64,000 bases of DNA from a virus. Shown in pieces: positions 11,873 through 36,836 of this stretch. Numbering within the stretch: position 1 is the stretch's first letter; the number at the start of each line of letters is the position of its first letter. Under the pieces are notes generated by a model. The model was not told where the DNA came from. It was given only the letters and a program-made list of their open reading frames with translations, and searched no databases. Location of the stretch: IMG/VR virus record IMGVR_UViG_3300029705_000104, positions 1 to 64,000 of that record. The stretch is one strand, 5' to 3'. The position numbers and the translations under genes are program-made.

Positions 11873-12316
11873 CTATTTTCGTATTTGAGATACCCAAATA
11901 TTCTTTTCTTCGCATTTAATGGCATATTTATTGTATTCTTTTAGAAGCCAATCTAGCATATCGTATGATGGAAATTTCATAAGGTCCGGATCTGGAATAG
12001 CAAAATTTAATTCTTCGTCCTGATTCCTGCCATAAGGGCATAAAAAAGGGCTTATATTATGATGCTCGGCAAAATGCTTTAAGAATACAATCTCACGTTC
12101 ATTGCCTCTCAAAATATAAGTATTACGCCAAAGCATTGTCCAAAAGATAGCGGCAACTGTTTTTCCTGTTCCTCTGTCCCAATCTTTCCATTGATATGGA
12201 TACGGATAGTTATGATTAAGAACAACTTGCTTTTGTTTTTTGGTTAACTTAATACTTGTAGCCTTTTGAATTTTATGAAGTCTCCATCTGATGATAATTC
12301 TAGTAAAAATATTCAT
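11873..12316 (-). CDS. hypothetical protein
   Basis: 147-aa ORF. Confidence 0.3.
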   Translation of the reverse strand: MNIFTRIIIRWRLHKIQKATSIKLTKKQKQVVLNHNYPYPYQWKDWDRGTGKTVAAIFWTMLWRNTYILRGNEREIVFLKHFAEHHNISPFLCPYGRNQDEELNFAIPDPDLMKFPSYDMLDWLLKEYNKYAIKCEEKNIWVSQIRK

Positions 12317-13125: not shown

Positions 13126-13140
13126 CTAAATGACCTCCTC

Positions 13141-13554
13141 TTAAATATGTCCACGATTCTGAAGTTCGTATAAATTCTGATGGAGAGCTGATGATAGCAT
13201 AGCAACATCCAAATTATAAGTTGCACTTTTAGCCATACCTTCTGCCAAATTATTTGTTAGAATTTCTTCAGCCTTGTTATGAGCAGCCGAAATAATTCGC
13301 TTGGCCCTTTCGTTTACTTCTTCTTCAACTGCAGGTAAAGAAAGAAACTCTTCGATTTTTTGGACATAGCGTTTAACTAATTTATCTTTTAAAATTTCTT
13401 CAAATCGTGAATCTCTATTATAAGGACCTTTAGTATTTAACTCATTGTAGGCTTTGCGAGCAGTGGCTAACAAATCTTCATCACTAATTTCTGCTGCAAA
13501 TAACGTCGCTAATTGGTTTCCAAATACTTCATCAACTTTAGCTGATATATTCAT
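13141..13554 (-). CDS. hypothetical protein
   Basis: 137-aa ORF, helical. Confidence 0.3.
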   Translation of the reverse strand: MNISAKVDEVFGNQLATLFAAEISDEDLLATARKAYNELNTKGPYNRDSRFEEILKDKLVKRYVQKIEEFLSLPAVEEEVNERAKRIISAAHNKAEEILTNNLAEGMAKSATYNLDVAMLSSALHQNLYELQNRGHI

Positions 13555-14828: not shown

Positions 14829-15527
14829 TCACGGAACTCTGGCTTGTTTTTGCCACCGCTCTTCCCGTTTTTGCTTCTTTTCCTGAGTCTTAAGAATAAA
14901 TTTTTTATACTCTTCATACGTCTTAAACCTCACATGATTAAATGTAGTAACGTCGAGACAATCTTCTCCGTTTGCGAATTCATACTCATTTGTTGAAATA
15001 ATGAAATATACGTCAGTACCCGGATTGTCCTCTATGACGACTTTAACAAGATCTTCTTTTATACTTAAGATACCATCAATTGATAATCCGGACCCAACTG
15101 CGTCTAATAGAATCCAAATTTCTTTATAATCTTTAGATTCAGATGTGCGTTTTGTTTTAATTTTATGGCCAATGTGTCTAGCTTGTTCACATATGCCATG
15201 CATTATCTTTTCGCCTTCAGATTCAGTCATGGCTTGCGACACAAGATCGAATCGTTGAAAAAATGAAAATTTTGAAGCAAGATTAGCGCTTCCATCTGGA
15301 CCTTTATCGTCATAGCATAAAAGCAAAATAGATTTGTCCTTTCTTGCTATAGACATAAGCTGATCGTTTAGTAAAGTTAATAATGTAGATTTTCCAGATC
15401 CATTGCAACCGACTAATGCCGTCAACCCTGGATTAAAGCCAATATCTTTTCTAGAATATAGACGAAACGAATCATCAAATGGCCTTGTTGGAATTATAAA
15501 ATTCTTTTTAAAGGATTGGTCCTGCAT
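14829..15527 (-). CDS. small ABC-type/P-loop ATPase-like protein
   Basis: Walker A LVGCNGSGKSTLL, signature-like MTESEGEK, Walker B-like IWILLDAVGSG. Confidence 0.45.
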   Translation of the reverse strand: MQDQSFKKNFIIPTRPFDDSFRLYSRKDIGFNPGLTALVGCNGSGKSTLLTLLNDQLMSIARKDKSILLLCYDDKGPDGSANLASKFSFFQRFDLVSQAMTESEGEKIMHGICEQARHIGHKIKTKRTSESKDYKEIWILLDAVGSGLSIDGILSIKEDLVKVVIEDNPGTDVYFIISTNEYEFANGEDCLDVTTFNHVRFKTYEEYKKFILKTQEKKQKREERWQKQARVP

Positions 15528-15939: not shown

Positions 15940-16730
15940 TTAAAAATCTCCTTTCTTAATCGGCAGCTTCTGCTATAGTGTTACTTAATGTGTCACCTCT
16001 AGAAGCGGATAAACGCGTTGCGAGCTCTATTTCAAGGCTTCTTGTTCAAAATTGATTAAGAAGTGGAATATCAACGGAAATACCTTTGAGCATTTCTTCA
16101 TATTTTTCTAGAAACCTAATGATATCTAATGCCATATCTTTATTTAAAGGTAATGATGTGTCTTTTTGACTAGAATTATTAAATACATTCAATAATGCGG
16201 ATTTTCTAGATTCTACTTTGACAATTTCTGAATTGATCTCTTTGACAGTTGTAAGCATTTTGTTTTACCCCCTTTTTAAAAAAGTATTTCTTGGCAGGTA
16301 GAAGTATTTTCATTTTGATCGATTCGTCTAGTTGTAGGTTGTCTTTGAAGAGTTGCTTTTGTACTCTGTTTAATATTATAAAACTGTACACCTAAGCGTT
16401 CTAATCGCATTCGCAGTTCATTAATGACAGAAATACATAGTTCAGCATTTATTCCATCCAAACTATTTTTATCTGCTGCCTTACTATTAAGCCAAGTCAT
16501 TACTTGTTCCATACTTTTTCTGCTAGGCATTGGCTCACCTTCTTTTTACATCCCAATGATGAATAGTATATCTTGGATTACTTTGCCCAGGCCAATCTTT
16601 ATCAGATGATCTTGTGACTATTAAGTCATCTTCTCGTAGACCTTTAAGGATTTTCTTTTCTGAATGATCAGTTGTTCCAAAATATACATCCGGATCCTTA
16701 TTCCATTGATAATGTAAAACAGTTACCATA

Positions 16731-17279
16731 TTAAGGATCCTCCTCCAAATACTTAGTCATAACAAAACCACGATTAGTAACTGACCATTCTTCTGTTTTA
16801 TACCAAACCTTCAAATGGTCACCATTATGAAGCCATTTAAGACGATCCCCGTTGATGCATTTTCTACAAGCTACTCTGGCTTTTGAAATGATGCAATATC
16901 CTTCACCATCGAGAGGTTCAGGTTCGTCTTCGGTTAGATATCCTGTATAAACCCATCCTTCTCCAGCTTCATTTGATAAATTAGGGCAATATGCATAACC
17001 ATTTTTTACTTTATTACTAATGGTTACGATTTCACCAGGCATCAAATATCCCGCGACTTCACTTTTTCGACTAGGATGAAGCCTAATATAAATAAAATCA
17101 TCGGGTTGGCAAATGGCATACATTTCTCTAAGCTCATCTTCAGCATTAGCTGTCCGTGCAGCAATTAATATGCCTACAACAAAAAGAAATAAAATAAGCG
17201 CAATAGCTAAGTATTTTGTAAAATATCTCATTTTATATCTCCTTTCTGATCTGAAAATAATGAGAGGAGTTGTTTCCAT
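16731..17279 (-). CDS. membrane-anchored protein with two SH3b-like repeats
   Basis: N-terminal TM helix, then two similar segments (GEIVTISNKVKNGYAYCP / GDHLKVWYKTEEWSVT). Confidence 0.35.
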   Translation of the reverse strand: METTPLIIFRSERRYKMRYFTKYLAIALILFLFVVGILIAARTANAEDELREMYAICQPDDFIYIRLHPSRKSEVAGYLMPGEIVTISNKVKNGYAYCPNLSNEAGEGWVYTGYLTEDEPEPLDGEGYCIISKARVACRKCINGDRLKWLHNGDHLKVWYKTEEWSVTNRGFVMTKYLEEDP

Positions 17280-17332
17280 TTTAAACTCCCCTCATTATCG
17301 AGATTCAGCTGACGATTTATAAAATCGCTATT

Positions 17333-17770
17333 TTATCCTAATCTAAATAGTTTTGATATAAATTGGGCTATTTTAATTGCTGTTGGATCTTCTTGGCTCA
17401 AACAGATCGCGAATAATCCGATTGCGCCAACCACTACAAGGGTTGCCATCACCTTCGGTTCTATATAAAATTTTGATTCTTTATATTTTTTCATTATTTC
17501 ATATGCTTTTTGCAACTCGTCACTCAGAGTCTCATATTCAGGCGTTCCGGGTTCAGACTTTGCCATCGCATATTTAATCCGTTCAATATTCCGCTGGATT
17601 TCACGTCCATTAGATCCAATACGAACTACAATATTACCATTTTCATCGGTATTATTTTGTTCATTTTGAATCGCTTCACGGTCATCATGATCTTTCTTGA
17701 TCTTGATACCAATTCCTACAACTGCAACTGCTGCGATAATTCCAATAGGTAACAATAACTTATTCAACAT
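17333..17770 (-). CDS. membrane protein
   Basis: TM helices at both ends; 145 aa. Confidence 0.3.
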   Translation of the reverse strand: MLNKLLLPIGIIAAVAVVGIGIKIKKDHDDREAIQNEQNNTDENGNIVVRIGSNGREIQRNIERIKYAMAKSEPGTPEYETLSDELQKAYEIMKKYKESKFYIEPKVMATLVVVGAIGLFAICLSQEDPTAIKIAQFISKLFRLG

Positions 17771-17808
17771 AAAATACCAGCTCCTTTTTAAAATTTTTAC
17801 AGCTTCAT

Positions 17809-17836
17809 CTCATTTATTAGCATGTTTTGTACACGG
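17809..17836 (-). promoter_or_regulatory. copy of conserved promoter-like motif
   Basis: Minus reading ccgtgtacaaAACATGctaatAAATGAg upstream of gene 17333-17770. Confidence 0.4.
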
Positions 17837-17837
17837 A

Positions 17838-18095
17838 TTACCATCTGCGCTGGGGATTATACTCATAGATCTGAACGAGATTGTTTAAGCCTTTAGACAC
17901 TAATATGTCATGAGCTTTTTCTTTGTCGCGATCAAATTCCTCTTGAGTCTTATGAAAAGGACAATTTCCATTAGGGTAACCTTCATTTAAAATTTTGCAT
18001 TGCGTTCCACAGATATTAGCAAAACAATCGTACTTTAAACAGCGAACCAACATAGGCATATTTGTCACCTCAGCTATAAATATGTTGAACCCCAA
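17838..18095 (-). CDS. Cys-rich small protein
   Basis: CLKYDCFANICGTQCKILNEGYPNGNCPFH. Confidence 0.3.
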   Translation of the reverse strand: MGFNIFIAEVTNMPMLVRCLKYDCFANICGTQCKILNEGYPNGNCPFHKTQEEFDRDKEKAHDILVSKGLNNLVQIYEYNPQRRW

Positions 18096-18564
18096 TTAAT
18101 AAATCATCTGCATTAATCCTTTGAGATCTTAAATCGTCCCGGATTTTGATTAATATATTAATTTTCGTCCGTCCTAATCCTTTAATTGTGCGCAAGTTTT
18201 CAAAAGTTGTACCTCGTAGCCAGGCAATTAAATCTCTAGCCCCCTGTTCATTATTTATAAAATATAAATTTCCAACCACGCGTTTGATAATGCCATCAAT
18301 TGAAAGATTTTGATGGCAATAACCGTAAATCATATTTTCATACAATTTATTCAAACGGTCAACTAAAATAGGTAGGGATCTGATAGGGGTTTTATTAATA
18401 TAATGCCTTTTACGTTCCTGTTGAAGAATTTGCTGGACTCGAATAAGACTTAAATCATAGTCTTTAACAATCTCGGTGGATGTTTTACCAAGATCATGCC
18501 ATTGATGAAAAATCTGCAAATCCCTTTCTCTTAGTTCTTTACCATTTTTACACGATCTAGACAT
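18070..18564 (-). CDS. sigma-70 region-4-like HTH DNA-binding regulator
   Basis: LRERDLQIFHQWHDLGKTSTEIVKDYDLSLIRVQQIL matches the sigma r4 / LuxR-type HTH; C-terminal GLGRTKINILIKI is HhH-like. Confidence 0.45.
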   Translation of the reverse strand: MSRSCKNGKELRERDLQIFHQWHDLGKTSTEIVKDYDLSLIRVQQILQQERKRHYINKTPIRSLPILVDRLNKLYENMIYGYCHQNLSIDGIIKRVVGNLYFINNEQGARDLIAWLRGTTFENLRTIKGLGRTKINILIKIRDDLRSQRINADDLLIGVQHIYS

Positions 18565-18578
18565 AATAGATCTCCTTT

Positions 18579-19190
18579 TTAAATTCGATAAATACGATAG
18601 CCAAGCCGTTGCCAGTCCAGAATATCCATTGTGTCAATTCGACGATCTAATTTTTCTCTGTAATTAGAAATCATCTCATTGTAGGCAGTTTCTAACTTTT
18701 TCTCATATTTTGCCTTAATTGCATTGAGATCATCTGTAAGTCTGTCCATAGTTAATTCAACCGATCGAGCTTGGACATCTTTGATAATAGCATCTTTATT
18801 TATTAGATCTATTTCTTCACGAAGCTTTTGATCAATTTGAGGTATAAGTTTATCTCGTTGAGTTGCAATTTCTAAACGTGTCTCAGAATTGATCTCTGTA
18901 AAAATATCATTGCGAATGTTTCGTACATTCTCACGAACTGCTTCAGGAACTTCTCGATTAACTGCTTGCTGAACTGCCTTGTTCACAACTTCTTCTTTAA
19001 CCTGAATTTCAGTTTTATCTGCCAAATCTTTGATTACGGAATTTAATTTTGTGGTGGCTTTTTTATTTTCAGCATCAGTTGCATTAAGCTGTTTATTAAC
19101 TTTTCGAGATTCTACACAAACTACACCTAATGCGGCAGCAGCAAGGGCTACTGCAAGGCCACCAAGAATTAAAACAACATGCTCTTTCAT
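18579..19190 (-). CDS. membrane-anchored coiled-coil protein
   Basis: N-terminal TM helix (LILGGLAVALAAAALGVVCV) plus long helical region. Confidence 0.35.
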   Translation of the reverse strand: MKEHVVLILGGLAVALAAAALGVVCVESRKVNKQLNATDAENKKATTKLNSVIKDLADKTEIQVKEEVVNKAVQQAVNREVPEAVRENVRNIRNDIFTEINSETRLEIATQRDKLIPQIDQKLREEIDLINKDAIIKDVQARSVELTMDRLTDDLNAIKAKYEKKLETAYNEMISNYREKLDRRIDTMDILDWQRLGYRIYRI

Positions 19191-20161
19191 ATTGGAAAAA
19201 CTCCTTCCTCTTCATCAAATTCAACAATATTCCCATCTCTTAAACAATATAAAACATTAGGCTTTAAAATTTTGCCATCTATTTGAACGGCTTTTACACA
19301 AACAGGTATCCATACGCATTCCCCAGATTGGTCAGTTTTATATAAAGTCCATTCAGCTAAAACAATCCAATCTCCTATTTTTCCACTAACTCTAGAAAAA
19401 CATCCAGTAGCTACTCCAATAGATCGTTTGCCGTCCATTCGTATAACAGCATTTGATCCAGTGCAACATATAACGGACTCATCTCCAGAAGTATAGTACC
19501 GTGATCCAGAAGTTGTACTAACGATTTGAGCATCCTCACCTAAAGCAGCAATCTTTGAACATCCTCCAGTCGTTGCGATTCTTGTATGCTGTCCAGTATC
19601 TGCAATTTTTGATATACAACTAGATGTGGCGATATGATTGCAACTTCCTGTACTCGCAATAGTCGCTTCTGATGTAGAAGCGCTAATGCTATTGTCAGCT
19701 CCAATGATGCCGATTCGAGCTTTTGCATATTCAAATGAGGCATTTATCTGATTTTCAGTAATTTCTGCATGTATTGTATTACGTAAAAGCTCATACATAT
19801 ATCGCCCATATCGTGTAGTTGCTGCAGACCATTGAGTTAATTTTTCCGATAATTTATCAAGTCCTATTTTTATAAAAGTGTGAAGTGAAATTTTTCGGCC
19901 AATATATAACTTTTGTGTAGCTCTTTTGTTCCCATGCCTAAAAAGAGTATTTCCCAATGCTTTGACATGTGCAAATGCGTAGGGCCTCGCTTGTTTATCT
20001 AATATTGGATAATAATCAAAGCAATCTAAAGGCGTTTCACAAAAATGCATTGTCCCAGGTTTACAAATTCCACGGCCATTTTCTTCATAAGTTTTGTAGG
20101 ATTCATATCGTTTACCACGACAGGTCATATCTGCTTCAAAAGCTTTATATCCCTTTATCAT
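19187..20161 (-). CDS. protein with N-terminal CxxG-HFC domain (related to the CxxGIHFF domain) and 9-residue beta-helix-like repeats
   Basis: N-terminus MIKGYKAFEADMTCRGKRY...CKPGTMHFCETPLDCFDYY. Middle carries about 6 tandem IAxTGxxSx nonamers (IASTGSCNH/IATSSCISK/IADTGQHTR/IATTGGCSK...). Confidence 0.45.
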   Translation of the reverse strand: MIKGYKAFEADMTCRGKRYESYKTYEENGRGICKPGTMHFCETPLDCFDYYPILDKQARPYAFAHVKALGNTLFRHGNKRATQKLYIGRKISLHTFIKIGLDKLSEKLTQWSAATTRYGRYMYELLRNTIHAEITENQINASFEYAKARIGIIGADNSISASTSEATIASTGSCNHIATSSCISKIADTGQHTRIATTGGCSKIAALGEDAQIVSTTSGSRYYTSGDESVICCTGSNAVIRMDGKRSIGVATGCFSRVSGKIGDWIVLAEWTLYKTDQSGECVWIPVCVKAVQIDGKILKPNVLYCLRDGNIVEFDEEEGVFPI

Positions 20162-20342
20162 TGTGGATATTCCTCCTTAAATTATAACTGTAATTGATTT
20201 TGTATCTGGATATGCTTTTATAAGACGCTTTACTTCTCGCATAGCACTTTTTCTCCATCGAGATTTTCTATAGGATTTTCTACCAAAATGCATATCAATT
20301 TTTACAGCTTTGAACATTTTATTGTTCCTCCTTTTTTTTTTT

Positions 20343-20380
20343 AAAAAAATATAAAGAAGCTGTTAATCATTTAGCTTCTT
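20343..20380 (-). terminator. intrinsic terminator
   Basis: Hairpin AAGAAGCT-gttaatcattt-AGCTTCTT followed (on minus strand) by a long T/A run. Confidence 0.45.
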
Positions 20381-20558: not shown

Positions 20559-20585
20559 CTAAGCTACTCCCATTAAAGGACATGT
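20559..20585 (-). promoter_or_regulatory. copy of conserved promoter-like motif
   Basis: Minus reading ttttcgcatataaAACATGtccttTAATGGgag. Confidence 0.45.
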
Positions 20586-20616
20586 TTTATATGCGAAAAA
20601 AGTATAAGGCCATGTC
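20586..20616 (-). terminator. intrinsic terminator
   Basis: A6 then GTATAAGG-ccatgtcga-CCTTATAC hairpin (plus-strand view); downstream of gene 20634-21107. Confidence 0.45.
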
Positions 20617-21345: not shown

Positions 21346-21386
21346 TGTTTTTCTCCTTTCTTTTGTATTTATCTAGTATAGTGTTT

Positions 21387-21414
21387 CCCATTAATATACA
21401 TGTTTATCTCGCGA
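21387..21414 (-). promoter_or_regulatory. copy of conserved promoter-like motif
   Basis: Minus reading tcgcgagataAACATGtatatTAATGGg. Confidence 0.45.
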
Positions 21415-21426: not shown

Positions 21427-21459
21427 AAAAAAAAATATCCCGTGTTTTTTACACGGGAT
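21427..21459 (-). terminator. intrinsic terminator
   Basis: A9 then ATCCCGTG-ttttttaca-CACGGGAT hairpin. Confidence 0.5.
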
Positions 21460-21688: not shown

Positions 21689-21714
21689 GGTTATTAACCT
21701 CCTTCATGTTTATT

Positions 21715-21742
21715 CCATTAATATCCATGTTGATCACGCGTG
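21715..21742 (-). promoter_or_regulatory. copy of conserved promoter-like motif (CACGCGTG palindrome variant)
   Basis: Minus reading cacgcgtgatcAACATGgatatTAATGG; near-identical to copies at 35591 and 35890. Confidence 0.45.
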
Positions 21743-25317: not shown

Positions 25318-25626
25318 TTATCTTTGATCATGCTTCAAGTTTTCAAATTTCAACATCTCGGTCATGTAGTAAATTGCATCATCTGTAAAACCAGAGTCTT
25401 TCAACTGCTTTTCAAAGGATTCAAATGTTGCAACATAATCGGCCTTAAGAACTTTAAATTGACCAGTTTGTTCAATTAAATCTTCCATTAGTTTTACATT
25501 ACCGGTCGAAATTTCAATGTTAAGGTCTTTTGATGCATCCTGAATCACATGAGAAACGGCTTGGAGATTCTTTTTCTTCTCCAGCAATAACTCATACCGG
25601 GCATTTACATCTTTGATAGTTAGCAT
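25318..25626 (-). CDS. hypothetical protein
   Basis: 102-aa helical ORF downstream of promoter motif 25643-25669. Confidence 0.3.
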   Translation of the reverse strand: MLTIKDVNARYELLLEKKKNLQAVSHVIQDASKDLNIEISTGNVKLMEDLIEQTGQFKVLKADYVATFESFEKQLKDSGFTDDAIYYMTEMLKFENLKHDQR

Positions 25627-25660
25627 AATTCTAACCTCCCTTCCTATTTAAGCGCATGTT

Positions 25661-25942
25661 TTAGATGCGTAAGAAATGACAAATAATTCCGACAATAATA
25701 CAAAGTCCGGTTATCAAAGCCAATATCTTTTGGCCAGAAATTGAATGAATTGGAGCTTTTTCTGATTCAGCACTTTCAGCTATTGCCTTCTTTCGAAAGA
25801 ATTCTAAACTCTTTTCATATTCATTTTTTTCGCGAACCAGCATCGAGCCACAATAAGAACAAGTAATTTGTTCATCATCATCTCTGAAAAATATTGTGCT
25901 TCCGCAATTTGGACATTTAAAATAGCCAGAAATATTTTTCAT
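25661..25942 (-). CDS. zinc-ribbon, tail-anchored membrane protein
   Basis: CPNCG...CSYCG ribbon and C-terminal TM helix. Start placed at MKNISGYF (AGGAGG RBS), which removes the overlap with 25944-26468. Confidence 0.35.
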   Translation of the reverse strand: MKNISGYFKCPNCGSTIFFRDDDEQITCSYCGSMLVREKNEYEKSLEFFRKKAIAESAESEKAPIHSISGQKILALITGLCIIVGIICHFLRI

Positions 25943-26468: not shown

Positions 26469-26487
26469 TCCGTCCTTTCTTTTATTA

Positions 26488-26559
26488 CGGGCGTAGTAGG
26501 ATTCGAACCTACTCTAACAGAGTCAAAGTCTGTTGTGCTGCCTTTTACACTATACGCCT
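26488..26559 (-). tRNA. tRNA-Gln (anticodon UUG)
   Basis: Minus reading AGGCGTATAGTGTAAAAGGCAGCACAACAGACTTTGACTCTGTTAGAGTAGGTTCGAATCCTACTACGCCCG. Anticodon loop CTTTGAC; T-arm GTAGG-TTCGAAT-CCTAC. Confidence 0.7.
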
Positions 26560-26571
26560 ATAAGGTGCAGG

Positions 26572-26598
26572 GGTAAGGATTTCCACCTTACATGATAG
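26572..26598 (-). promoter_or_regulatory. conserved hairpin element GGTAAGG-atttcca-CCTTAC-ATGATAG immediately 5' of tRNA-Gln
   Basis: Near-identical copy at 28005-28029; diverged copy at 4342-4377. Confidence 0.4.
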
Positions 26599-26941
26599 TA
26601 CCTCCATGTTTTCTGTGTATCATCGCTCCATCCTCGTCATGCCCCTAAACGCTCTGGTGCACGCGTAGGATCGTACCTATCTGACCCAGCGTCTACTGGA
26701 CTCTTAATAAAGTAGTGTCGGCCTAACACATTTTTAATAGGACTCTATTAAGTTCCCGAACTGTACATATTCGTTCTATTCCGCCACCCTGCAAATGTAG
26801 ACCATATTCATACTAAAATCTCGAGATTAATGCCCTTTCCCTTTTGAATAACATGTACACAACGTTGCACGTACATGGCTTTCTAGCAAATTCAAAAGTA
26901 ACGCACCAGGCATTATTTAGTATTATTAGTACGGTCTACAA

Positions 26942-27026
26942 TGGTGCACCTAATAGGAGTTGAACCTACACATCCTAAGATACATGGACCTGAACCATGC
27001 GCGTCTACCTGTTCCGCCATAGGTGC
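26942..27026 (-). tRNA. tRNA-Leu (anticodon CAG), type II, CCA encoded
   Basis: Minus reading GCACCTATGGCGGAACAGGTAGACGCGCATGGTTCAGGTCCATG...GTAGGTTCAACTCCTATTAGGTGCACCA; long variable arm; anticodon loop TTCAGGT. Confidence 0.7.
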
Positions 27027-27050
27027 ATTAATAAGGCTTGTTTCTCATTT

Positions 27051-27245
27051 TTATTCTCCTTCTTGCCATTCTTCAACAACTAATGATGATTCCTGAATAA
27101 CCTTAGCAACAAAGTTCGCTTCGTCTGGAGTCAACTTATCCACCATATTATTCATGATCCATGAAAAAGTATTGTAGACAAGCGTTGCAGTTTCCTTGTC
27201 ATTCATAGTATGCCTCTGGATCGATAATTTCAAGCAATGCGCCAA
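27051..27245 (-). CDS. hypothetical protein
   Basis: 64-aa ORF in the tRNA island. Confidence 0.25.
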   Translation of the reverse strand: MAHCLKLSIQRHTMNDKETATLVYNTFSWIMNNMVDKLTPDEANFVAKVIQESSLVVEEWQEGE

Positions 27246-27435
27246 AGAGAATTATGCCTAATGGAGATATGATAATAAACCAAGGAATCCCCGAATAACC
27301 GCCGAGCAAAAGAATTAGCAATCCCAAGCTGGATAAAAGGGAAAGCCCAGTAAGAAAAAGCAATACAAATTCTAACAAAGTCATACATACGTATTTAATG
27401 GACTTTAAAAATTCATTGAACATCATGTTTGCCAA
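27199..27435 (-). CDS. small membrane protein
   Basis: 78 aa; very hydrophobic (LLFLTGLSLLSSLGLLILLLGG...). Confidence 0.3.
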   Translation of the reverse strand: MANMMFNEFLKSIKYVCMTLLEFVLLFLTGLSLLSSLGLLILLLGGYSGIPWFIIISPLGIILFGALLEIIDPEAYYE

Positions 27436-27460
27436 GTTTGACTCCTTTCTAAAATATAAC

Positions 27461-27498
27461 TGGCCCAGTAGGATTTGAACCTACCCGCCATAGGTGCA
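27461..27498 (-). pseudogene. tRNA fragment: 5' end of a tRNA-Leu-like gene fused to a T-arm/acceptor segment (GTAGGTTCAAATCCTAC-TGGGCCA)
   Basis: GCACCTATGGCGG (identical to the tRNA-Leu(CAG) 5' end) joined directly to a T-arm with no D or anticodon arm. Confidence 0.4.
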
Positions 27499-27504
27499 TT
27501 TTAA

Positions 27505-27590
27505 TGGTGCGCATAGTGGGACTCGAACCCACACGCTACTGAGAGCACAAGATTTTAAGTCTCGGGCGTCTGCCATTCCGCCATATGCGC
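27505..27590 (-). tRNA. tRNA-Leu (anticodon UAA), type II, CCA encoded
   Basis: Minus reading GCGCATATGGCGGAATGGCAGACGCCCGAGACTTAAAATCTTGTGCTCTCAGTAGCGTGTGGGTTCGAGTCCCACTATGCGCACCA; anticodon loop CTTAAAA. Confidence 0.7.
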
Positions 27591-29469: not shown

Positions 29470-29697
29470 TCAATTTCTCTCAAGAAAAAGCAAAGCCTCT
29501 TCTTTAGTTTTGCCAATCAGCATATAAGGGAGAATAGAAATCTCACCAGCATAAAATGTTTTGAGAACTGTCCAGTCTGTAAAACTATGCTTATGAGGAA
29601 GATTATCATCGAAACGGACTATAATTTTTTCCATTCCTTCATATTCCTCAGCTGGGATAATAGATGCTTCAATAATAATATTATTCTTCGCTTCCAT
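29470..29697 (-). CDS. hypothetical protein
   Basis: 75-aa ORF. Confidence 0.3.
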   Translation of the reverse strand: MEAKNNIIIEASIIPAEEYEGMEKIIVRFDDNLPHKHSFTDWTVLKTFYAGEISILPYMLIGKTKEEALLFLERN

Positions 29698-30010
29698 TTT
29701 GATTTTCCTCTTCCTTTGATATAAGTACGCCTGATGGTCCTTTGCTTAAAGCCAGATCATAAAAATCTTTTAATCCCTGGTTATAAACAAGCAATTTGGG
29801 GGCATCACGATTAATGATCATGGCTGCAGTCATTAATCCCAAAGTAAAACCTGCTCGTTTAGAATCCGAGCAAGTCTCAATCATATGATCTGCCTCTTTT
29901 GAAAAACAGAAGTCATTAACTGCTTTGTATATATCCTGATAGCGAATAAGTATATCAGCTATTGGTATAGACGTTATTTTTTCTTCAGGCATATATGATC
30001 CTTCTTTCAA
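29681..30010 (-). CDS. hypothetical protein
   Basis: 109-aa ORF downstream of promoter motif 30047-30074. Confidence 0.3.
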   Translation of the reverse strand: MKEGSYMPEEKITSIPIADILIRYQDIYKAVNDFCFSKEADHMIETCSDSKRAGFTLGLMTAAMIINRDAPKLLVYNQGLKDFYDLALSKGPSGVLISKEEENQNGSEE

Positions 30011-30046
30011 AAGAAAATAGAACTGGCATAAGATACCTTATCAGTT

Positions 30047-30074
30047 CCATTTATGCATATGTTTTTTGCGCGTG
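30047..30074 (-). promoter_or_regulatory. copy of conserved promoter-like motif
   Basis: Minus reading cacgcgcaaaaAACATAtgcatAAATGG. Confidence 0.35.
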
Positions 30075-30535: not shown

Positions 30536-31120
30536 TTAGCCCCAATATTTTTGTCCATTGACTGGCCATTCAAATCCAAAATCAGAACGCTTAATTTTGC
30601 ATTGCGGTTCTCCATCTTTCCAGAATACAATTCCTTCAATTGGAGTTTCTTCAAGATAATGGCGTAAACCTTCGAATGATCTATCAACTACAAGTCGTAC
30701 ATCTCCGTGCCTTACAAGTACATCTAAAGTCATATTATAAGGATTACCTTGAAAATGGGGGCCGATAACTTCGTAGGTTCCATCTTCGAGCTCATGTCCG
30801 GTATGCTTTAGAGCTTCAATATACCATTTTGAATCCGGATCATCCTCTTTGACAGGAACCCAATGAGGCCAATGACCTGTTACAGGATCTGGATGGCAAC
30901 AAGGAATTGCTCCTTCAGGAGGTTGTTTTCCTTTCTTTGCATCATAACGCCTATAAAATTTGCCATCCAGGATAGCACAACAAGCGCCATCAAGTTTTAA
31001 TGTTGCTTCCCCTTCTCCATCAAGCACCCATTGCAAAGAAGGGTCAGACAATTCTGGTTTGATCCCTACTTTTCGATGCCCATCGTATTCTCTTTCAAAT
31101 AAAGTTGGAATTTTTTTCAT
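30536..31120 (-). CDS. nucleotidyltransferase/ATP-dependent ligase-like protein (KxDG motif)
   Basis: ATLKLDGACCAILDG carries the covalent-adenylation motif I (KxDG) of DNA/RNA ligases. Start at MKKIPTLF with a GAAGGAG RBS. Confidence 0.45.
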   Translation of the reverse strand: MKKIPTLFEREYDGHRKVGIKPELSDPSLQWVLDGEGEATLKLDGACCAILDGKFYRRYDAKKGKQPPEGAIPCCHPDPVTGHWPHWVPVKEDDPDSKWYIEALKHTGHELEDGTYEVIGPHFQGNPYNMTLDVLVRHGDVRLVVDRSFEGLRHYLEETPIEGIVFWKDGEPQCKIKRSDFGFEWPVNGQKYWG

Positions 31121-31131
31121 AACTATCTCCT

Positions 31132-31866
31132 TCAATATACTTCTTCTATAACTGAATATTCTCCACTTACCCATAAGACTCGGTTTTTATATAAAATAGC
31201 ATGCCATCCATTTTCTGAAGTAGCCACCCAAGGATACATAGTCCTTTTATTTTCAATTTGCGTAACTATTCCAAAATTGGTGCCATTTCCAAGTCGAATA
31301 TTTACTTTATTCATAGTTGTAACGACCATCTTTTTCAATTCTTTTGCAGCCGTTGAGCTATTTGTGGAGTATTTTAAGTAATATTTGCAAGCCTCATCAA
31401 CTCGTCTATCTAATGCAGCTTGATCCGTTTTAGCAGGTTTTTCATACTTTTTCATGATGATATTGCAAGGAGTAATAATATCTGTAGCATTGATAACGGC
31501 TTCCCAAACTGTTTTATACTTAGGCATTTCCGTAAGTAAAAAATCAATTTGTACTTCCGGGCTACCAATATCTTTTCCTTTAGCAAAATCATATAGTGCT
31601 TCCTTACGTGTATAATAGCACCATTGGGCTAATCCAAATGCAATGCCATCTTTAGAAAAAGATTTTCGATCAAGGGTATCATGGTTAACTAAATCGGCGT
31701 ATGTTCTGGAATCGACATAATATTTCCTGTTCGCTCCAGTCATGCATAAAGGATTTAGAGAGCTTTCTAACATTAAATTTCCCATAATAGCGGCAACTCC
31801 GCATGGGTTTTTAATTGTTAAAAATAGACGATTCCAAATTTCTTGTTCAATATTGGCATCAATCAT
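31132..31866 (-). CDS. peptidoglycan hydrolase (phage tail-lysozyme-like) with C-terminal SH3b-like domain
   Basis: NPCGVAAIMGNLMLESSLNP resembles the tail-lysozyme GN..ES motif; C-terminus VNIRLGNGTNFGIV...GWHAILYKNRVLWVSGEY is SH3b-like. Confidence 0.5.
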   Translation of the reverse strand: MIDANIEQEIWNRLFLTIKNPCGVAAIMGNLMLESSLNPLCMTGANRKYYVDSRTYADLVNHDTLDRKSFSKDGIAFGLAQWCYYTRKEALYDFAKGKDIGSPEVQIDFLLTEMPKYKTVWEAVINATDIITPCNIIMKKYEKPAKTDQAALDRRVDEACKYYLKYSTNSSTAAKELKKMVVTTMNKVNIRLGNGTNFGIVTQIENKRTMYPWVATSENGWHAILYKNRVLWVSGEYSVIEEVY

Positions 31867-32599: not shown

Positions 32600-32756
32600 C
32601 CCGCTCTTTCCTCTTTTCCGCCCTCAGCGGGCAATATTTAGGAATGTCCATTGACACCTTATGAATGTTTTCTGGGTGTGGATTATTCTTTAAATTGTAT
32701 TCACAGGTTCCATTTTGACAAACTTCTTTAGGACACCATTGTTCAAATTTTTTCAT
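32559..32756 (-). CDS. hypothetical protein
   Basis: 65-aa ORF. Confidence 0.25.
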   Translation of the reverse strand: MKKFEQWCPKEVCQNGTCEYNLKNNPHPENIHKVSMDIPKYCPLRAEKRKERDERLHKIHRQAYK

Positions 32757-33589
32757 ATAGAATTTTCCCCTTTTGGAAGTAATTGATAAATCTTTCCTTT
32801 ATACTCTTCACGCTGCTTGCCTTTAACATACGGCCGAACAAATACCACCTTACCATTTTTGTAGTGTCTAAAATGGCCACGTACGCCCCATGCTTGACAT
32901 TGAATTTCGGTCTTCTTTCGTTCGACCTTTACTTGCCAATTTTTTCTGAGCTTATACTGATTGACCAGACGAATGGTTCGTGTTTCGACAGTAGAATGAG
33001 GATACTGCACTTTTCGACTAGGGCCTTGGCATTGAATTTCTTTTACTTTGAAAGCAACGTCTTTGAAATGAAAGAAAAAGCAATTAAGTAATAGAAAAAG
33101 CATAGCCATGGTTTCATAGTTATATAAACCGCTGTCCCCATCTTCTTCTCGTAAAAATTTCGTAACTGCACTATTGCTGTTTACATTTTTTAATTCGAAT
33201 AATGCATGACCTGTTTGATTTGGAAATACTTTAATATCACAATCTACAGAAAAGCGTTGAAGTTCAGGACTTTGCTCCCAAATGCGAATATGAAGCATAT
33301 TAGAGCTAATAACTGAAAAATAGTAGGTTTCTTCTCTAAAAATAAATTTAATTTTACGGAGTGCAACATATTTCAAATTAAAATAGTTAGGATCCTCTTG
33401 AATATAAGGATTTGTAATTTGAGAAATTTGGTGAAGTTCGTCCGTAGTCAAGGTTATCGTGTCCCAGCCCTTTTGGTCATACGATTCTTTTAGTTGAAGT
33501 TGGTCTAAATTTGATTGCGGCTTGTGCAAAAAGTTTGCGCCTAATGTCTTCTTCCATTCATCCCAATTTGGCTCTTTACTTGCTTCCAT
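32753..33589 (-). CDS. hypothetical protein
   Basis: 278-aa ORF. Confidence 0.35.
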   Translation of the reverse strand: MEASKEPNWDEWKKTLGANFLHKPQSNLDQLQLKESYDQKGWDTITLTTDELHQISQITNPYIQEDPNYFNLKYVALRKIKFIFREETYYFSVISSNMLHIRIWEQSPELQRFSVDCDIKVFPNQTGHALFELKNVNSNSAVTKFLREEDGDSGLYNYETMAMLFLLLNCFFFHFKDVAFKVKEIQCQGPSRKVQYPHSTVETRTIRLVNQYKLRKNWQVKVERKKTEIQCQAWGVRGHFRHYKNGKVVFVRPYVKGKQREEYKGKIYQLLPKGENSI

Positions 33590-33654
33590 TTTGATTTAAT
33601 CCTCCTAAAACTGTGAGAAAAGAAAGAGCACCTGTATAAGTGCTCTTTACATTT

Positions 33655-34539
33655 TTAAATGGATCCCACAAGTCTGTAATTGTTAGATCCGGCTTCAACG
33701 GCTTCCTCAGCGACTCTTAATGCCTGCTCTTTAGTATCACAAGCAATTAAGAAGTTTGCTGTATGAGCAAAATGGATTCCTCTGTCAGGATCAGCATGAC
33801 CGAGCCAGTCAGTCGGAAAATCCATTCTATTTACAAACGATCCAGGATTTTTAGGGACCGTTTGAACATTCCATCCTCCTCTTGTTGAAGGATATACTGT
33901 AAATAATACATCCTTAAGTCTAACATCGGATTGGACAGTATCCGCCCAAGGCAGATAGGTATCCAGTACCAATATGTTTCCCCCAAAATAGCAGCTGAGA
34001 ACTTTTTCTCGTGCTTCTACAATGGAATTTGCATGATCGATATGAGCCTTCAAAAGGATCATAGCAACCTGCATAGCTCTATGAAAATTTACATCTTCAG
34101 AGCTATTATCATTCCAATTAGGGTTCATAACCTTAATTGTAGAGGACAACAGATTCTGCTGAACGCCATTATCAGCTTTATCGATTCCGACAACTAAAGT
34201 ATTATCCACTTTAGCCCAGGCAGTTCTGTCCGGACACAGTAAATGCCCAAAGTCTCTCCACAAAAGTCCAAAACCGCAATACGGAATTGGATCTCTTCCA
34301 GGATCGGCTTTTCGGAATGCTTTATCTTCCTGATGGTGATCGTATTTTCCCATTCCGATATCAAATACGAGTGCTTCCTCACCAATATTTGCGGCGCGCT
34401 TAAGTGCTTCTTCGACATCCAAAGTCCGAATAATTTTAATATCCGGATTTATCAGTCGGCACATAGCCACACCAAATACATCATCAGCATGAAAAATTGT
34501 GCTATGAGTGATTACCTGTTTGTAATTAAATTCTTCCAT
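33655..34539 (-). CDS. MYG1/UPF0160-family metal-dependent hydrolase
   Basis: ITHSTIFHADDVFGVAMCRL (cf. THNGSFHCDEALAC) and the GKYDHHQ motif. Confidence 0.55.
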   Translation of the reverse strand: MEEFNYKQVITHSTIFHADDVFGVAMCRLINPDIKIIRTLDVEEALKRAANIGEEALVFDIGMGKYDHHQEDKAFRKADPGRDPIPYCGFGLLWRDFGHLLCPDRTAWAKVDNTLVVGIDKADNGVQQNLLSSTIKVMNPNWNDNSSEDVNFHRAMQVAMILLKAHIDHANSIVEAREKVLSCYFGGNILVLDTYLPWADTVQSDVRLKDVLFTVYPSTRGGWNVQTVPKNPGSFVNRMDFPTDWLGHADPDRGIHFAHTANFLIACDTKEQALRVAEEAVEAGSNNYRLVGSI

Positions 34540-34588
34540 TTTGATTTTCTCCCTTCATTTTGTCAGTAGTGTTAGTATAAAATCTGTT

Positions 34589-34614
34589 CCATTAAAGAGC
34601 TTGTTTTATACGCG
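34589..34614 (-). promoter_or_regulatory. copy of conserved promoter-like motif
   Basis: Minus reading ttttcgcgtataaAACAAGctcttTAATGGaa. Confidence 0.45.
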
Positions 34615-34656
34615 AAAAAGATAAAGACGACTTGTACTCGTCGCCTTTATTTTTTT
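34615..34656. terminator. terminator-like hairpin flanked by an A-run and a T-run (possibly bidirectional)
   Basis: AAAGACGAC-ttgtact-CGTCGCCTTT followed by T8 on the plus strand and preceded by A5. Confidence 0.35.
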
Positions 34657-34663
34657 TCAATGC

Positions 34664-34999
34664 TTACGAATCTGTATTTTTCTTATTTTCGCTTACATTT
34701 GTACTGACTAGGAGTCCATCTGCATCCAACTCTAAATCAACATTAATTCCTTGAGAAATATCATATTCGTCACTTTCCAGATAGATCCGAATTTGATCAG
34801 CTAAACGCTGAGCTTTGATACTATTTTTCCTATAAATTTCCATTTCTTTTTCGAATTTCTCACGTTCGATGGCTTCTCGACGGGCATTAGCCGATCGGGT
34901 AACCAATTCTCGATCTTGTTCGTCAACGCAGACTTTAACGGTCAAAAGACCTAAAGCCAGTGCTGCTGCTCCTAAAACAATCCATCCTAGTTTAGTCAT
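34664..34999 (-). CDS. membrane-anchored coiled-coil protein
   Basis: N-terminal TM helix WIVLGAAALALGLLTV; 111 aa. Confidence 0.3.
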   Translation of the reverse strand: MTKLGWIVLGAAALALGLLTVKVCVDEQDRELVTRSANARREAIEREKFEKEMEIYRKNSIKAQRLADQIRIYLESDEYDISQGINVDLELDADGLLVSTNVSENKKNTDS

Positions 35000-35052
35000 T
35001 TTTATTCTCCTTTCATACTTTTATGTAATCAGAGTAGTACATAGATTAGTCT

Positions 35053-35079
35053 CCCATTAAATGACATGTTTTTTGAACG
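35053..35079 (-). promoter_or_regulatory. copy of conserved promoter-like motif
   Basis: Minus reading cgttcaaaaAACATGtcattTAATGGga. Confidence 0.45.
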
Positions 35080-35109
35080 TTTTAGGACAAAATATTATTC
35101 CCCGTTAAT

Positions 35110-35325
35110 TTAACGAGGAATATAAATACCACCATATTGTGTAACATTCATTGCTACCATGAGTGTCTCTTTTTTAGTTTGTAATTCGTCAATTTCGAGG
35201 CCATTATAATATGAACTATATGGGGACGACAAATTCTCGCATTTACGAATTATTTGAATTTCATCATCAATTTTCAACAATTCTTGGTACTTCTTTCTAT
35301 AGTCATTCCATTCATTACTAGTCAT
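35110..35325 (-). CDS. hypothetical protein
   Basis: 71-aa ORF. Confidence 0.3.
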   Translation of the reverse strand: MTSNEWNDYRKKYQELLKIDDEIQIIRKCENLSSPYSSYYNGLEIDELQTKKETLMVAMNVTQYGGIYIPR

Positions 35326-35342
35326 ATAAATATACCTCCTTT

Positions 35343-35369
35343 CTCATTAAAGAGCATGTTTCACGTGCG
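35343..35369 (-). promoter_or_regulatory. copy of conserved promoter-like motif
   Basis: Minus reading cgcacgtgaAACATGctcttTAATGAg. Confidence 0.45.
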
Positions 35370-35399
35370 AAAAAAAAGATGCTGTGTTTTTCACACAGC
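35370..35399 (-). terminator. intrinsic terminator
   Basis: A8 then GCTGTGT-ttttc-ACACAGC hairpin. Confidence 0.5.
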
Positions 35400-35560
35400 A
35401 GAATCTTTTATACCGTTCTTTTTGTTGTAACACCTTCTAATCCATTCCTGGGATTCCTTGGGAAGTTTATTGATGTCGATCTTGTGCACCTTAACAGGGA
35501 TTTCCTCTTTTTCATCCTTGCGTATAAATGCCTTTATCAACTCCACAATAAACATCTTTT
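35396..35560 (-). CDS. small protein (54 aa), below the ORF-track cutoff
   Basis: Minus ORF MFIVELIKAFIRKDEKEEIPVKVHKIDINKLPKESQEWIRRCYNKKNGIKDSAV with AAAGGAGGA RBS; flanked by promoter motif 35591-35618 and terminator 35370-35399. Confidence 0.35.
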
Positions 35561-35590
35561 TATCCTCCTTTTAATTTATAGTATTGTGTT

Positions 35591-35618
35591 CCATTAATAT
35601 CCATGTTGATCGCGCGTG
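35591..35618 (-). promoter_or_regulatory. copy of conserved promoter-like motif
   Basis: Minus reading cacgcgcgatcAACATGgatatTAATGG. Confidence 0.45.
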
Positions 35619-35621
35619 GTC

Positions 35622-35652
35622 AAAAAAAGAAGTCCGTGTTGTTAGCACGGAC
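35622..35652 (-). terminator. intrinsic terminator
   Basis: A7 then GTCCGTG-ttgttag-CACGGAC hairpin. Confidence 0.5.
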
Positions 35653-35833
35653 AAATCATTTGGTAACCTGGAACATAAGACGGATCAACACCGAGTACTT
35701 TAAGTCCACGGATAACATCATGAAGCGCTTGCTCCTGTTCATCGGTCAAATTGTATTCTTTCTTCCATGCATCCATATTAGCATCGATTACAGCTTCTAA
35801 CTTGTCCCATTTTTCATTAACATTATTATTCAT
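35642..35833 (-). CDS. hypothetical protein
   Basis: 63-aa ORF. Confidence 0.3.
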   Translation of the reverse strand: MNNNVNEKWDKLEAVIDANMDAWKKEYNLTDEQEQALHDVIRGLKVLGVDPSYVPGYQMICPC

Positions 35834-35889
35834 TGTGTTTTCCTCTCTTTCTTTTATGTGAGTACTTAGTAATTTGGTTCATCTCTGTT

Positions 35890-35917
35890 CCATTAATATC
35901 CATGTTGATCACGCGTG
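35890..35917 (-). promoter_or_regulatory. copy of conserved promoter-like motif
   Basis: Minus reading cacgcgtgatcAACATGgatatTAATGG. Confidence 0.45.
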
Positions 35918-35919
35918 GC

Positions 35920-35945
35920 AAAAAAGAAACGCCACGTTTGTGGCG
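35920..35945 (-). terminator. intrinsic terminator
   Basis: A6 then CGCCAC-gtttg-TGGCG hairpin. Confidence 0.45.
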
Positions 35946-35982
35946 CTTATAAAATATCATACTAGCTTTTTTTCTCAATCGT

Positions 35983-36321
35983 TTAAAGCCTACCCTTTAA
36001 GGCAGTCAATGACTTACACCAATTCGTGTGTGCTTTTTCCAGATCCTTACGGCCGGCAGCTTTATCACAGTTTACTAAATTACTAAAATGATCATATGCT
36101 TCATTAAGTATCTGGTAAATATCATTCCAGTCATTAATCTCAATTTCTGTTTTCTTAATTTTTCTTCGAATATGATTACATGCTAACCACATATATTCGG
36201 CATAGTCACTATAGTGGTTATTACGAGTGCAATGCTTATTCTCATGGTAAGCCCACATTTGATCATAATGCATCAAAAAATGGTTTAAAATCTTAAGAAT
36301 CTGTTTTTTAAAGTTGGACAT
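35983..36321 (-). CDS. hypothetical protein
   Basis: 112-aa ORF. Confidence 0.3.
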   Translation of the reverse strand: MSNFKKQILKILNHFLMHYDQMWAYHENKHCTRNNHYSDYAEYMWLACNHIRRKIKKTEIEINDWNDIYQILNEAYDHFSNLVNCDKAAGRKDLEKAHTNWCKSLTALKGRL

Positions 36322-36330
36322 AATTAGCCC

Positions 36331-36675
36331 TCATTTCTTTAAATATTTTCTAGTAACTGCATCTAAAAAATCATGATAATCAGTTTTATACCTTTTAATA
36401 TCTAGATCATATTTTTCAGAGTCTAAGCACATTAGAAGATGTGCCATGCAACCATATACTTCAACTTCATTTGCTTTTTGAGTAGAAGCCGCTTCTAGAA
36501 GTAGATAAGCTTCTCCAACATAACGTTTTTGAACATTAACATTGACTCGTTGAACATTAGGGTCTTTCCGCTTATAAGTATTGTGCAGCCGTTCGATGGT
36601 TGTGTCTGATAATGTGTTACGAATTCGATCAATCCAGCCAACTAATACAAGTCTTTCGTATGTGTCTAAAGCCAT
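36331..36675 (-). CDS. hypothetical protein
   Basis: 114-aa ORF. Confidence 0.3.
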   Translation of the reverse strand: MALDTYERLVLVGWIDRIRNTLSDTTIERLHNTYKRKDPNVQRVNVNVQKRYVGEAYLLLEAASTQKANEVEVYGCMAHLLMCLDSEKYDLDIKRYKTDYHDFLDAVTRKYLKK

Positions 36676-36722
36676 TTTAGTTGCACCTCCTTAAAAATAT
36701 AAGGGAAGCATATTGAGCCTCC

Positions 36723-36749
36723 CTCATTTATAGCCATGTTCTATATGCG
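36723..36749 (-). promoter_or_regulatory. copy of conserved promoter-like motif
   Basis: Minus reading cgcatatagAACATGgctatAAATGAgg. Confidence 0.45.
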
Positions 36750-36836
36750 AAAAAAAATAAATCCATGTTTAAAAAGAGAAGACCCTCTATTACTAGAAGG
36801 CCTTCCCCTTTTAAAGCATTACTTATATGAAATTCA

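Follow-up and report, generated by a model that had tools for sequence, protein, structure and literature searches.

How are the many short genes in the middle of this phage genome transcribed, and by which enzyme? We addressed this question in a stretch of 64,000 nucleotides (positions 1 to 64,000 of IMG/VR record IMGVR_UViG_3300029705_000104; hereafter, the window), where six successive units between 34.6 and 36.8 kb follow the same order of promoter motif, Shine-Dalgarno (SD) sequence, open reading frame(s) (ORFs), and hairpin/T-run terminator. An earlier note, made from the letters alone, had pointed to a motif repeated at least 13 times on the minus strand, and had read it as a phage-specific promoter of independently transcribed small genes. 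We propose, with a probability of roughly 60%, that this motif serves as the cognate promoter for an RNA polymerase (RNAP) that the phage itself encodes, a single-subunit enzyme of the two-barrel type bearing helix-turn-helix (HTH) domains. Each cassette would then be an autonomous unit made of a promoter, a short SD leader, one or more ORFs, and an intrinsic terminator, and the cassettes would represent the autonomous transcription units of the phage's non-structural programme.

A strand-specific motif in the gaps between genes

The repeat is a genuine and specific signal. Its aligned sites in the window share a three-part consensus, TCGC-N6-AACATG-N4-T(A/T)AATGG(G/A)A, conserved over ~30 bp. 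Searching the window for AAACATG-N5-TAATGG with up to two mismatches returned 16 matches, all 16 on the minus strand, compared to 4.0 ± 2.1 in shuffled sequence, which never attained 16. A 32-nt position matrix yielded 14 sites with scores of 27.8-40.0 (14 on the minus strand vs 0 on the plus strand), every one of them in an intergenic gap, while the best non-site score in the window was 6.6 on the minus and 4.4 on the plus strand. Leave-one-out scores ranged from 18.3 to 36.7, and the maximum over 200 shuffles was 18.1. All 13 sites listed in the earlier note proved real, with the one given as 20559 actually located at 20570-20587, and a fourteenth was added at 11374-11391. The palindrome CACGCGTG, previously counted in four copies, was found in two only (sites 21715 and 35890), two further sites carrying CACGCGCG and CACGTG. 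The proposed placement of the motif 30-60 nt before a gene start failed for site 912, where the next ORF is ~300 nt away; at the other 13 sites, the start codon lies 19-58 nt past the G following TnAAT. A long, multi-copy, strand-specific block located 5' of genes, as found here, is a feature of phage RNAP promoters.

Terminators delimit the units on the other side. A hairpin followed by a T-run precedes every unit of the array (ΔG -10.9 to -28.9 kcal/mol, z -3.6 to -7.2), and six hairpins between 34.6 and 36.8 kb qualify as intrinsic terminators, namely five cassette terminators and the hairpin at 36768-36815. Terminator-like sites are also enriched across 20-38 kb (27 observed vs 11.0 ± 3.5 expected). 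The motif fills the gap between the upstream terminator and the downstream SD, and stand-alone RNA units consist of the motif, an RNA, and a T-run (window 740-938; positions 2890-3010 in the relative L128), with the motif as the sole promoter-like sequence. Units of the array and stand-alone RNA units alike are enclosed by terminators, and the gap contains nothing but the motif, which must therefore carry promoter activity. Together, the terminators and the specificity for gene gaps and for one strand support the earlier suggestion of a phage-specific promoter class driving independently transcribed, terminated units.

A repeat involved in RNA processing, antitermination, or replication and packaging, positioned between genes by chance, would be a very improbable alternative to a promoter. 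The motif often abuts terminator T-runs, as such an element might, but it lies downstream of terminators and upstream of the SD, and it brackets stand-alone RNA genes together with a terminator. Its orientation also strictly follows that of the genes (14 vs 0 in the window, 24 vs 0 in the relatives described below), and the conserved block stops where the leaders begin.

A candidate polymerase that accompanies the motif

A degenerate pattern scan of IMG/VR identified two motif-rich contigs from the same sample, 3300028805_000086 (95.6 kb, 22 sites), which is syntenic with the window and encodes proteins 30-57% identical to those of the window, and 3300028805_000118 (16 sites). Both carry the motif on the gene strand only, and many of their sites form arrays of single small genes. 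At the end of the first contig lies a 934-aa ORF with the sequence SGADFDGDTV, the universal Mg-binding loop of the β' subunit, and with HTH matches at aa 58-126 and 903-933. Across 37 aligned homologues, the SGADFDGD segment (DxDGD loop) is invariant, and the family displays the two-barrel catalytic fold, whose relatives include QDE-1, P74-26 gp62/P23-45 gp64, and cellular β'. The terminal HTH domains of this ~935-aa polymerase are sigma-region-4-like at both ends. The family has at least 8000 homologues and currently bears the label "HTH DNA-binding protein" or "RNA-dependent RNA polymerase". A T7-like polymerase domain (PF00940) had no Pfam match in the window ORFs, in loci L117 and L121, or in the relatives' polymerase, and comparing YonO to the 37-sequence profile with hhalign gave a probability of homology of 0.4%.

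Within the window's clade (contigs of ~90-106 kb), the polymerase is 64-83% identical, while other proteins are far less conserved. The lineage extends over phages and prophages of ~40-106 kb from Clostridia, Lactococcus, and Actinobacteria, and is common in rumen and gut metagenomes. Homologues with 38-48% identity are encoded by phages of Arthrobacter, Gordonia, Streptomyces, Rhodococcus, Lactococcus (1706/P118 group), and Faecalibacterium, where the polymerase is always the last large gene, behind a Cas4/RecB-like exonuclease. Members of the family were also detected inside bacterial chromosomes or isolate genomes of Faecalibacterium and Eubacterium ramulus (L197, Faecalibacterium prausnitzii NZ_CP186691.1, 2.17 Mb; L201; L203; L238); since some of these are complete chromosomes, part of the lineage consists of prophages.

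Every relative with the motif encodes the polymerase. Starting from the polymerase alignment, we retrieved 78 loci from genomes and metagenome-assembled genomes (1.19 Mb), when a single-protein query returned none; in these polymerase-bearing loci, all 24 occurrences of the lineage pattern were on the gene strand (24 vs 0), typically ~1 kb upstream of the polymerase gene and at the head of an exonuclease-polymerase operon. A strong motif site stands ~1 kb before the polymerase gene in every relative with enough sequence. Numbering the motif from the first A of AACATG (position 0), the individual versions align in one shared register: TCGCG-N5-TACA-N5-TTTAATGRAA in the L128 clade, 10 copies of TTTTACATACCCTATAATGARAGGA in the gene gaps of the small-gene array of Lactococcus phage P118, and tCGCGtAAAtTACAnGGGCTATAATgRA in the equivalent place of Arthrobacter phage Mudcat. 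The resulting lineage consensus comprises CGC at positions -9 to -7, (A/T)ACA at 0 to 3, T(A/T)nAAT at 9 to 14, and R at 15. In the motif search of relatives that the earlier note had called for, every match was on the gene strand and agreed in register, and the alignment shows the motif to be kept in register across phages of both Actinobacteria and Firmicutes.

The window is the reverse of part of a 99,274-bp metagenomic contig (JGI 3300031555 Ga0318466_10004940), to which all contig coordinates refer. Between 10 and 89.5 kb of this contig, we found no sigma factor, T7-like RNAP, or DxDxD protein. The last gene in the order of transcription encodes a 1433-aa DUF5906 primase-helicase-type replicase (contig 87.6-91.9 kb; L117 18393-20285 and beyond), the apparent counterpart of the "four-in-one" helicase-primase-polymerase GP55 of Lactococcus phage 1706 (PMC12205980). 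In this phage lineage, the polymerase gene is the last large gene, at the right genome end. Among relatives, all loci with the replicase carry it 3-8 kb further downstream, except for three, which end too soon after the replicase. Based on this linkage, and because a 940-aa orthologue (P0012, on a 4-kb contig) occurs in sample ERZ27248370 alongside contigs 100% identical to the window, we infer that this genome also encodes the polymerase, within the last ~10 kb of the source contig.

The earlier note had named another candidate reader for the AACATG element, the sigma-region-4-like protein encoded at 18070-18564, which would bind the motif and activate the promoters. This 164-aa protein does show similarity to the HTH of Mu Mor and late activators, although below threshold (Pfam 23 bits for a cut-off of 24.9; PHROG 532, E=6e-4). 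However, no homologue was detected (phmmer E<=1) in the motif-bearing relatives examined, including the syntenic stretch of the 22-site contig 3300028805_000086, and the motif also occurs in Lactococcus and Arthrobacter phages, so that we give this candidate hardly any credence. The protein might instead regulate the structural genes, which do not carry the motif.

Three further observations concern the polymerase. A 278-aa protein of the window (32753-33589, minus strand) resembles the two-barrel polymerase at its N-terminus, where aa 4-65 are 37% identical to residues 387-440 of the enzyme (BLASTP E=2e-10), and may be an associated factor or derive from duplication of a polymerase segment. 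A non-coding stretch of 141 nt that directly follows the polymerase gene (L158 5990-6130, L133 18595-18735) is 84% identical between relatives, compared to ~72% nucleotide identity for their polymerase genes themselves, and may be a genome-end, packaging, or late-promoter element. Finally, we considered a P23-45-like fusion of an RNAP with the tape-measure protein, but neither the 2241-aa tape-measure protein nor any other window ORF contained a credible DxDxD loop.

Promoter geometry and the host polymerase

Where transcription would begin was assessed from 61 family sites in which both SD and ORF are clear. In 13 of these 61 sites, the SD core begins at motif positions 15-20, i.e. 1-6 nt past the A/T-rich hexamer at positions 9-14 (short-leader examples include TAAAT followed by AGGAGGTGATAAATG and TTTAT followed by GAAAGGAGGCAGATTTATG); leader or closing stems begin at positions 15-17, 1-3 nt past the hexamer. 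Because both elements begin within a few nucleotides of the hexamer, the predicted transcription start is the purine at about position 15, directly after TnAAT. The promoter would accordingly span from about -25 to +4, with the CGC box at -24 to -22, AACATG at -15 to -10, T(A/T)AAT at -5 to -1, and a start at the next G or A, usually within GGRA. In this scheme, the polymerase would use its own HTH domains to read the CGC and (A/T)ACA boxes, one helical turn apart, then melt the A/T-rich TnAAT and initiate at the adjacent purine. Extended to the whole lineage, we consider it an even bet that CGC-N6-(A/T)ACA-N5-T(A/T)nAAT followed by R, read as duplex through the enzyme's own HTH domains and without a sigma factor, is the first promoter consensus of this large group of two-barrel polymerases.

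The alternative that deserves most attention is a promoter for host RNAP, in which the hexamer would be the -10 element, GGRA the discriminator, and the CGC and AACATG boxes would be bound by a phage activator or sigma-like factor, or by sigma region 3. Several points speak for it or otherwise weigh against a dedicated phage polymerase. Host RNAP serves the early genes of most phages. The TnAATGGGA of the window resembles an optimal sigma-70 -10 element followed by a GGGA discriminator, and in many relatives the hexamer is a perfect TATAAT, on which host sigma-A holoenzyme may act, with or without a phage factor. A genome announcement also took the repeat of Gordonia cluster DJ as a sigma-70 -10 element (PMC9671010). 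In addition, the predicted start derives from SD and hairpin positions only, and the polymerase gene lies outside both the window and the 10-89.5 kb section of the contig. Since this gene sits behind its own putative promoter, its first synthesis also needs another route, possibly host RNAP, read-through, or injected enzyme.

Nevertheless, we consider transcription by host RNAP unlikely. The hexamer reads (A/T)T(A/T)AAT, with a T in place of the essential A(-11) in 14 of 14 window sites, and the shifted reading TWAATG would be without T(-7). No TTGACA-like -35 hexamer is conserved in the window sites at the sigma-70/sigma-A distance (16-19 bp upstream), and the conserved TG 3 bp upstream of the hexamer is one base past the extended -10 position. 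Because the inferred start directly follows the hexamer, which in a sigma-70 promoter would sit at -12 to -7, the sigma-70 fit is poor: a start 6-8 nt past the hexamer would leave 13 of the 61 units with a truncated SD or none, and would also take away part of the conserved leader and closing stems. The upstream boxes are moreover kept in register in phages of both Actinobacteria and Firmicutes; these share the phage polymerase but no host factor, and no sigma factor or activator co-conserved with the motif was found. From its sequence, the motif hence does not look like a host sigma-A-like promoter in this phage, and the earlier proposal of TTAATG/AAATG as a sigma-type -10 element is not supported, as the second base of the sole plausible hexamer is always T and the SD follows 1-5 nt behind it in those 13 family sites. 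Extracytoplasmic function (ECF), sigma-54, and sporulation sigma consensus sequences, compared by eye, had spacings that do not fit.

If the motif is read by the phage's own two-barrel polymerase, the enzyme could be made late, packaged, and injected, because its gene lies immediately upstream of the packaging/structural module on a circular map; the cassettes could then be immediate-early genes transcribed independently of the host.

This arrangement can be compared to several known systems. As in T7, T3, and SP6, whose single-subunit RNAPs use promoters that consist of one uninterrupted, highly conserved stretch of ~25-30 bp, repeated many times on the same strand, the purine start here directly follows an A/T-rich segment (TAAT then GGGA here, TATA then GGGAGA in T7) and units are closed by a hairpin and T-run. 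Unlike in the T7 class, the candidate enzyme is an unrelated two-barrel protein with HTH domains, and the motif reaches further upstream, with a CGC box near -23. Two-barrel phage RNAPs include YonO of SPbeta, gp66 of crAss-like phage phi14:2, and gp64/gp96 of P23-45, for which terminal HTH domains have not been reported; the YonO promoter is undefined (PMC5467207). The motif had no convincing match in the SPbeta sequence that surrounds the mapped YonO start and is delimited by the published primers. Separately, a 10-mer identical to the core of the P118 motif, TACATACCCT, occurs in the yonN-yonK gap of SPbeta (L172 ~10148-10157, minus strand), a long non-coding region that YonO transcribes. 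As this 10-mer lies downstream of the published primer-extension primer, it is not the mapped YonO start, and the match is probably a coincidence.

Multisubunit enzymes of jumbo phages offer a formal likeness. The late promoter of the AR9 non-virion RNAP reads A(-11)ACA-N6-T-A/G(+1), and that of phiKZ TATG(+1) (PMC7598289); the motif holds AACA-N6-T-W at positions 0-11 and an ATG around the predicted start. However, the AR9 enzyme needs uracil-containing DNA and starts at A/G where the motif usually has T, and there are no jumbo-phage RNAP genes here, hence we took this resemblance as coincidental. The cassettes themselves recall the SPO1 terminal-repeat module and the T7 class I genes, with many short genes of unknown function, strong promoters and terminators of their own, and variable content, but these early arrays use host sigma-A/sigma-70 promoters while a phage-specific one is predicted here.

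The same polymerase family is found in the actinophage supercluster (BI, AM, AU, AW, DJ, CC, EL), Lactococcus 1706-like phages, and Faecalibacterium phages, all of which, like the lineage as a whole, end with the polymerase gene, preceded by that of a Cas4/RecB-like exonuclease, and keep every gene on the same strand. The window's clade differs by its ~100-kb genomes from rumen and gut metagenomes and by a hexamer that has diverged from TATAAT. For one member, Gordonia phage Vardy (cluster DJ), the genome announcement describes a repeated 50-bp intergenic motif with TATAAT in the middle of the genome, taken as a sigma-70 -10 element (PMC9671010). Compared by description only, this repeat resembles the present motif in that the cluster carries the polymerase, and differs in that it was not linked to the phage polymerase (PMC9671010).

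Phage-specific promoters of phage polymerases are thus already known, the repeat of one relative has been interpreted as a sigma-70 element, and the family itself has been flagged bioinformatically: a preprint, which does not mention promoters, suggested that this protein, with an HTH domain at each end, may be an RNAP (bioRxiv 10.1101/842583). In the literature searched, we found no description of a link between motif and polymerase, of in-register conservation across the lineage, or of a start directly after the hexamer. No promoter has been described for this enzyme family, and the comparison provides a 30-bp candidate promoter, a predicted start, and a candidate enzyme. If correct, this would account for how a phage lineage widespread in gut and rumen transcribes its genes, and thousands of genes now labelled "HTH DNA-binding protein" or "transposase" could be reannotated. 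It would also yield a compact polymerase/promoter pair independent of host machinery, and the cassette arrays, as accessory genes with expression of their own, would merit screens for anti-defence or host-takeover functions. Culturable relatives include Lactococcus phages P118 and 1706, Arthrobacter phage Mudcat, Gordonia cluster DJ, and Faecalibacterium prophages.

Cassettes, other promoter sites, and neighbouring genes

All elements of the array are on the minus strand and are given here in the direction of transcription. A 22-bp hairpin flanked by an A-run and a T-run (36768-36815, ΔG -28.9 kcal/mol, z -7.2) closes the upstream structural operon, and is followed by promoter site 1 (36722-36750, TTTCGCATATAGAACATGGCTATAAATGAGGG, score 32.3), with a predicted start at G 36725. 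Unit 1 opens at this predicted start with a leader hairpin and a T-rich tract (36699-36727, ΔG -15.7, z -4.1), and encodes two ORFs (35983-36675) of 114 aa (36331-36675) and 112 aa (35983-36321), without a Pfam family and with a single weak PHROG match of unknown function (E = 0.002), ahead of an intrinsic terminator at 35927-35948. Site 2 (35888-35916, score 40.0), which holds CACGCGTG, precedes a 63-aa ORF (35642-35833) and a terminator at 35632-35652; site 3 (35589-35617, also 40.0) precedes a 54-aa ORF (35391-35555) and a terminator at 35380-35400. At site 4 (35342-35370, score 34.6), the SD AAGGAGG lies 4 nt past the predicted start, a short leader, and the 71-aa ORF (35110-35325) ends in a terminator at 35096-35122. 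Site 5 (35052-35080, score 30.4) serves a 111-aa ORF with a hydrophobic N-terminal segment (34664-34999), terminated at 34621-34650. Site 6 (34587-34615, score 36.2) stands before a 294-aa protein of the MYG1/UPF0160 family (33655-34539; Pfam PF03690, E=1.6e-42), with a terminator at 33623-33648 behind it. The earlier description of six units with one small ORF each therefore applies as to their number and layout, except that the first, from site 36723, has two ORFs and the sixth, from site 34589, has the MYG1-family gene.

The six small ORFs had no Pfam match and no PHROG match better than E = 0.002 (two weak ones, both to families of unknown function), and none matched known anti-defence or host-takeover families in Pfam or PHROG. 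Homologues of these ORFs were not detectable in the arrays of relatives, although the promoters are kept there, which supports a hypervariable accessory region. Such variable content behind conserved promoters would fit accessory or counter-defence genes. At the nucleotide level, a megablast of 30-42 kb against 50,697 phage records gave no match, and the best hit of the conserved ATPase was to Enterococcus myoviruses, at 40% identity. Directly after several promoters, a hairpin and T-run stand in the leader before the SD (window 36699-36727; L117 ~13120-13160 and ~14850-14890), and these could be 5' stabilisers or attenuators.

Eight further promoter sites, also on the minus strand, lie outside the array. 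Those at 30045-30073 (score 36.5) and 25642-25670 (score 32.4) are upstream of ORFs 29681-29992 and 25318-25626, respectively, the latter with its SD 5 nt past the predicted start. They are followed by sites at 21713-21741 (score 38.4), which holds CACGCGTG, at 21386-21414 (score 36.3), preceded by a terminator at 21437-21459, and at 20568-20596 (score 39.3). The weakest site, with CGT instead of CGC, is located at 17808-17836 (score 27.8, leave-one-out 18.3), upstream of ORF 17333-17770, and the site absent from the earlier list at 11372-11400 (score 34.0), upstream of ORF 11132-11338. The last, at 910-938 (score 35.3), is the predicted driver of a non-coding RNA.

This RNA (740-913, minus strand) is a tRNA-like structure of ~170 nt (fold z -4.7), in which a 13-bp closing stem joins the two ends, the 5' end GAGAACAAATTGC pairing with the 3' end GCAATTTGTTCTC directly before the T-run. 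The closing stem starts one base past the predicted start of site 912. A canonical T-arm (GGTTCGAAGCC; GCAGGTTCGAAGCCTGC in the feature as annotated) is present; ARAGORN made no tRNA call, and the RNA scores 19 bits against the Rfam tRNA model, an Rfam search at the gathering threshold returning three tRNAs only. Its nucleotide identity to the relative L014 (~1817-2000) is 82%, vs 40-46% for the flanking proteins, and the closing stem differs in sequence in L014 with complementarity kept. A shorter tRNA-like unit with the same layout occurs in L128 (2925-3003).

More broadly, the window has 37.5% G+C and carries nearly all its plausible genes on the minus strand. In transcription order, the genome opens with head and tail genes, that for the tape-measure protein among them, and continues with tail fibres and lysis, the small-gene array, and ~35 kb of genes with accessory or nucleotide-metabolism roles, among which are MYG1, an RNA-ligase-like protein, ThyX, three tRNAs, a SpoU methylase, and a PurZ/PurA-like adenylosuccinate synthetase; the replicase comes after these. 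Motif sites are confined to the non-structural part of the contig, at ~42.8-84 kb, with none in structural or lysis genes; the region served includes the small-gene array, nucleotide metabolism, the tRNA-like RNA, and replication genes, and in relatives also the polymerase's own operon.

Among the neighbouring genes, the tRNAs Gln-TTG, Leu-CAG, and Leu-TAA (within 26487-27590, minus strand), the SpoU-type methylase (11404-11925), the RNA-ligase-like protein (30536-31174), and MYG1 (33655-34539) together suggest a theme of RNA and tRNA maintenance. The adenylosuccinate-synthetase homologue (1468-2631, minus strand) has its best PHROG match in 1211, the PurZ family of 2-aminoadenine synthesis (E=4.8e-63), and because of this match the genome might contain a modified adenine. 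In L128, a more distant relative, a reverse transcriptase (RVT_1) adjoins a 900-aa protein with collagen-like repeats (16164-20371), a locus that may be a diversity-generating retroelement.

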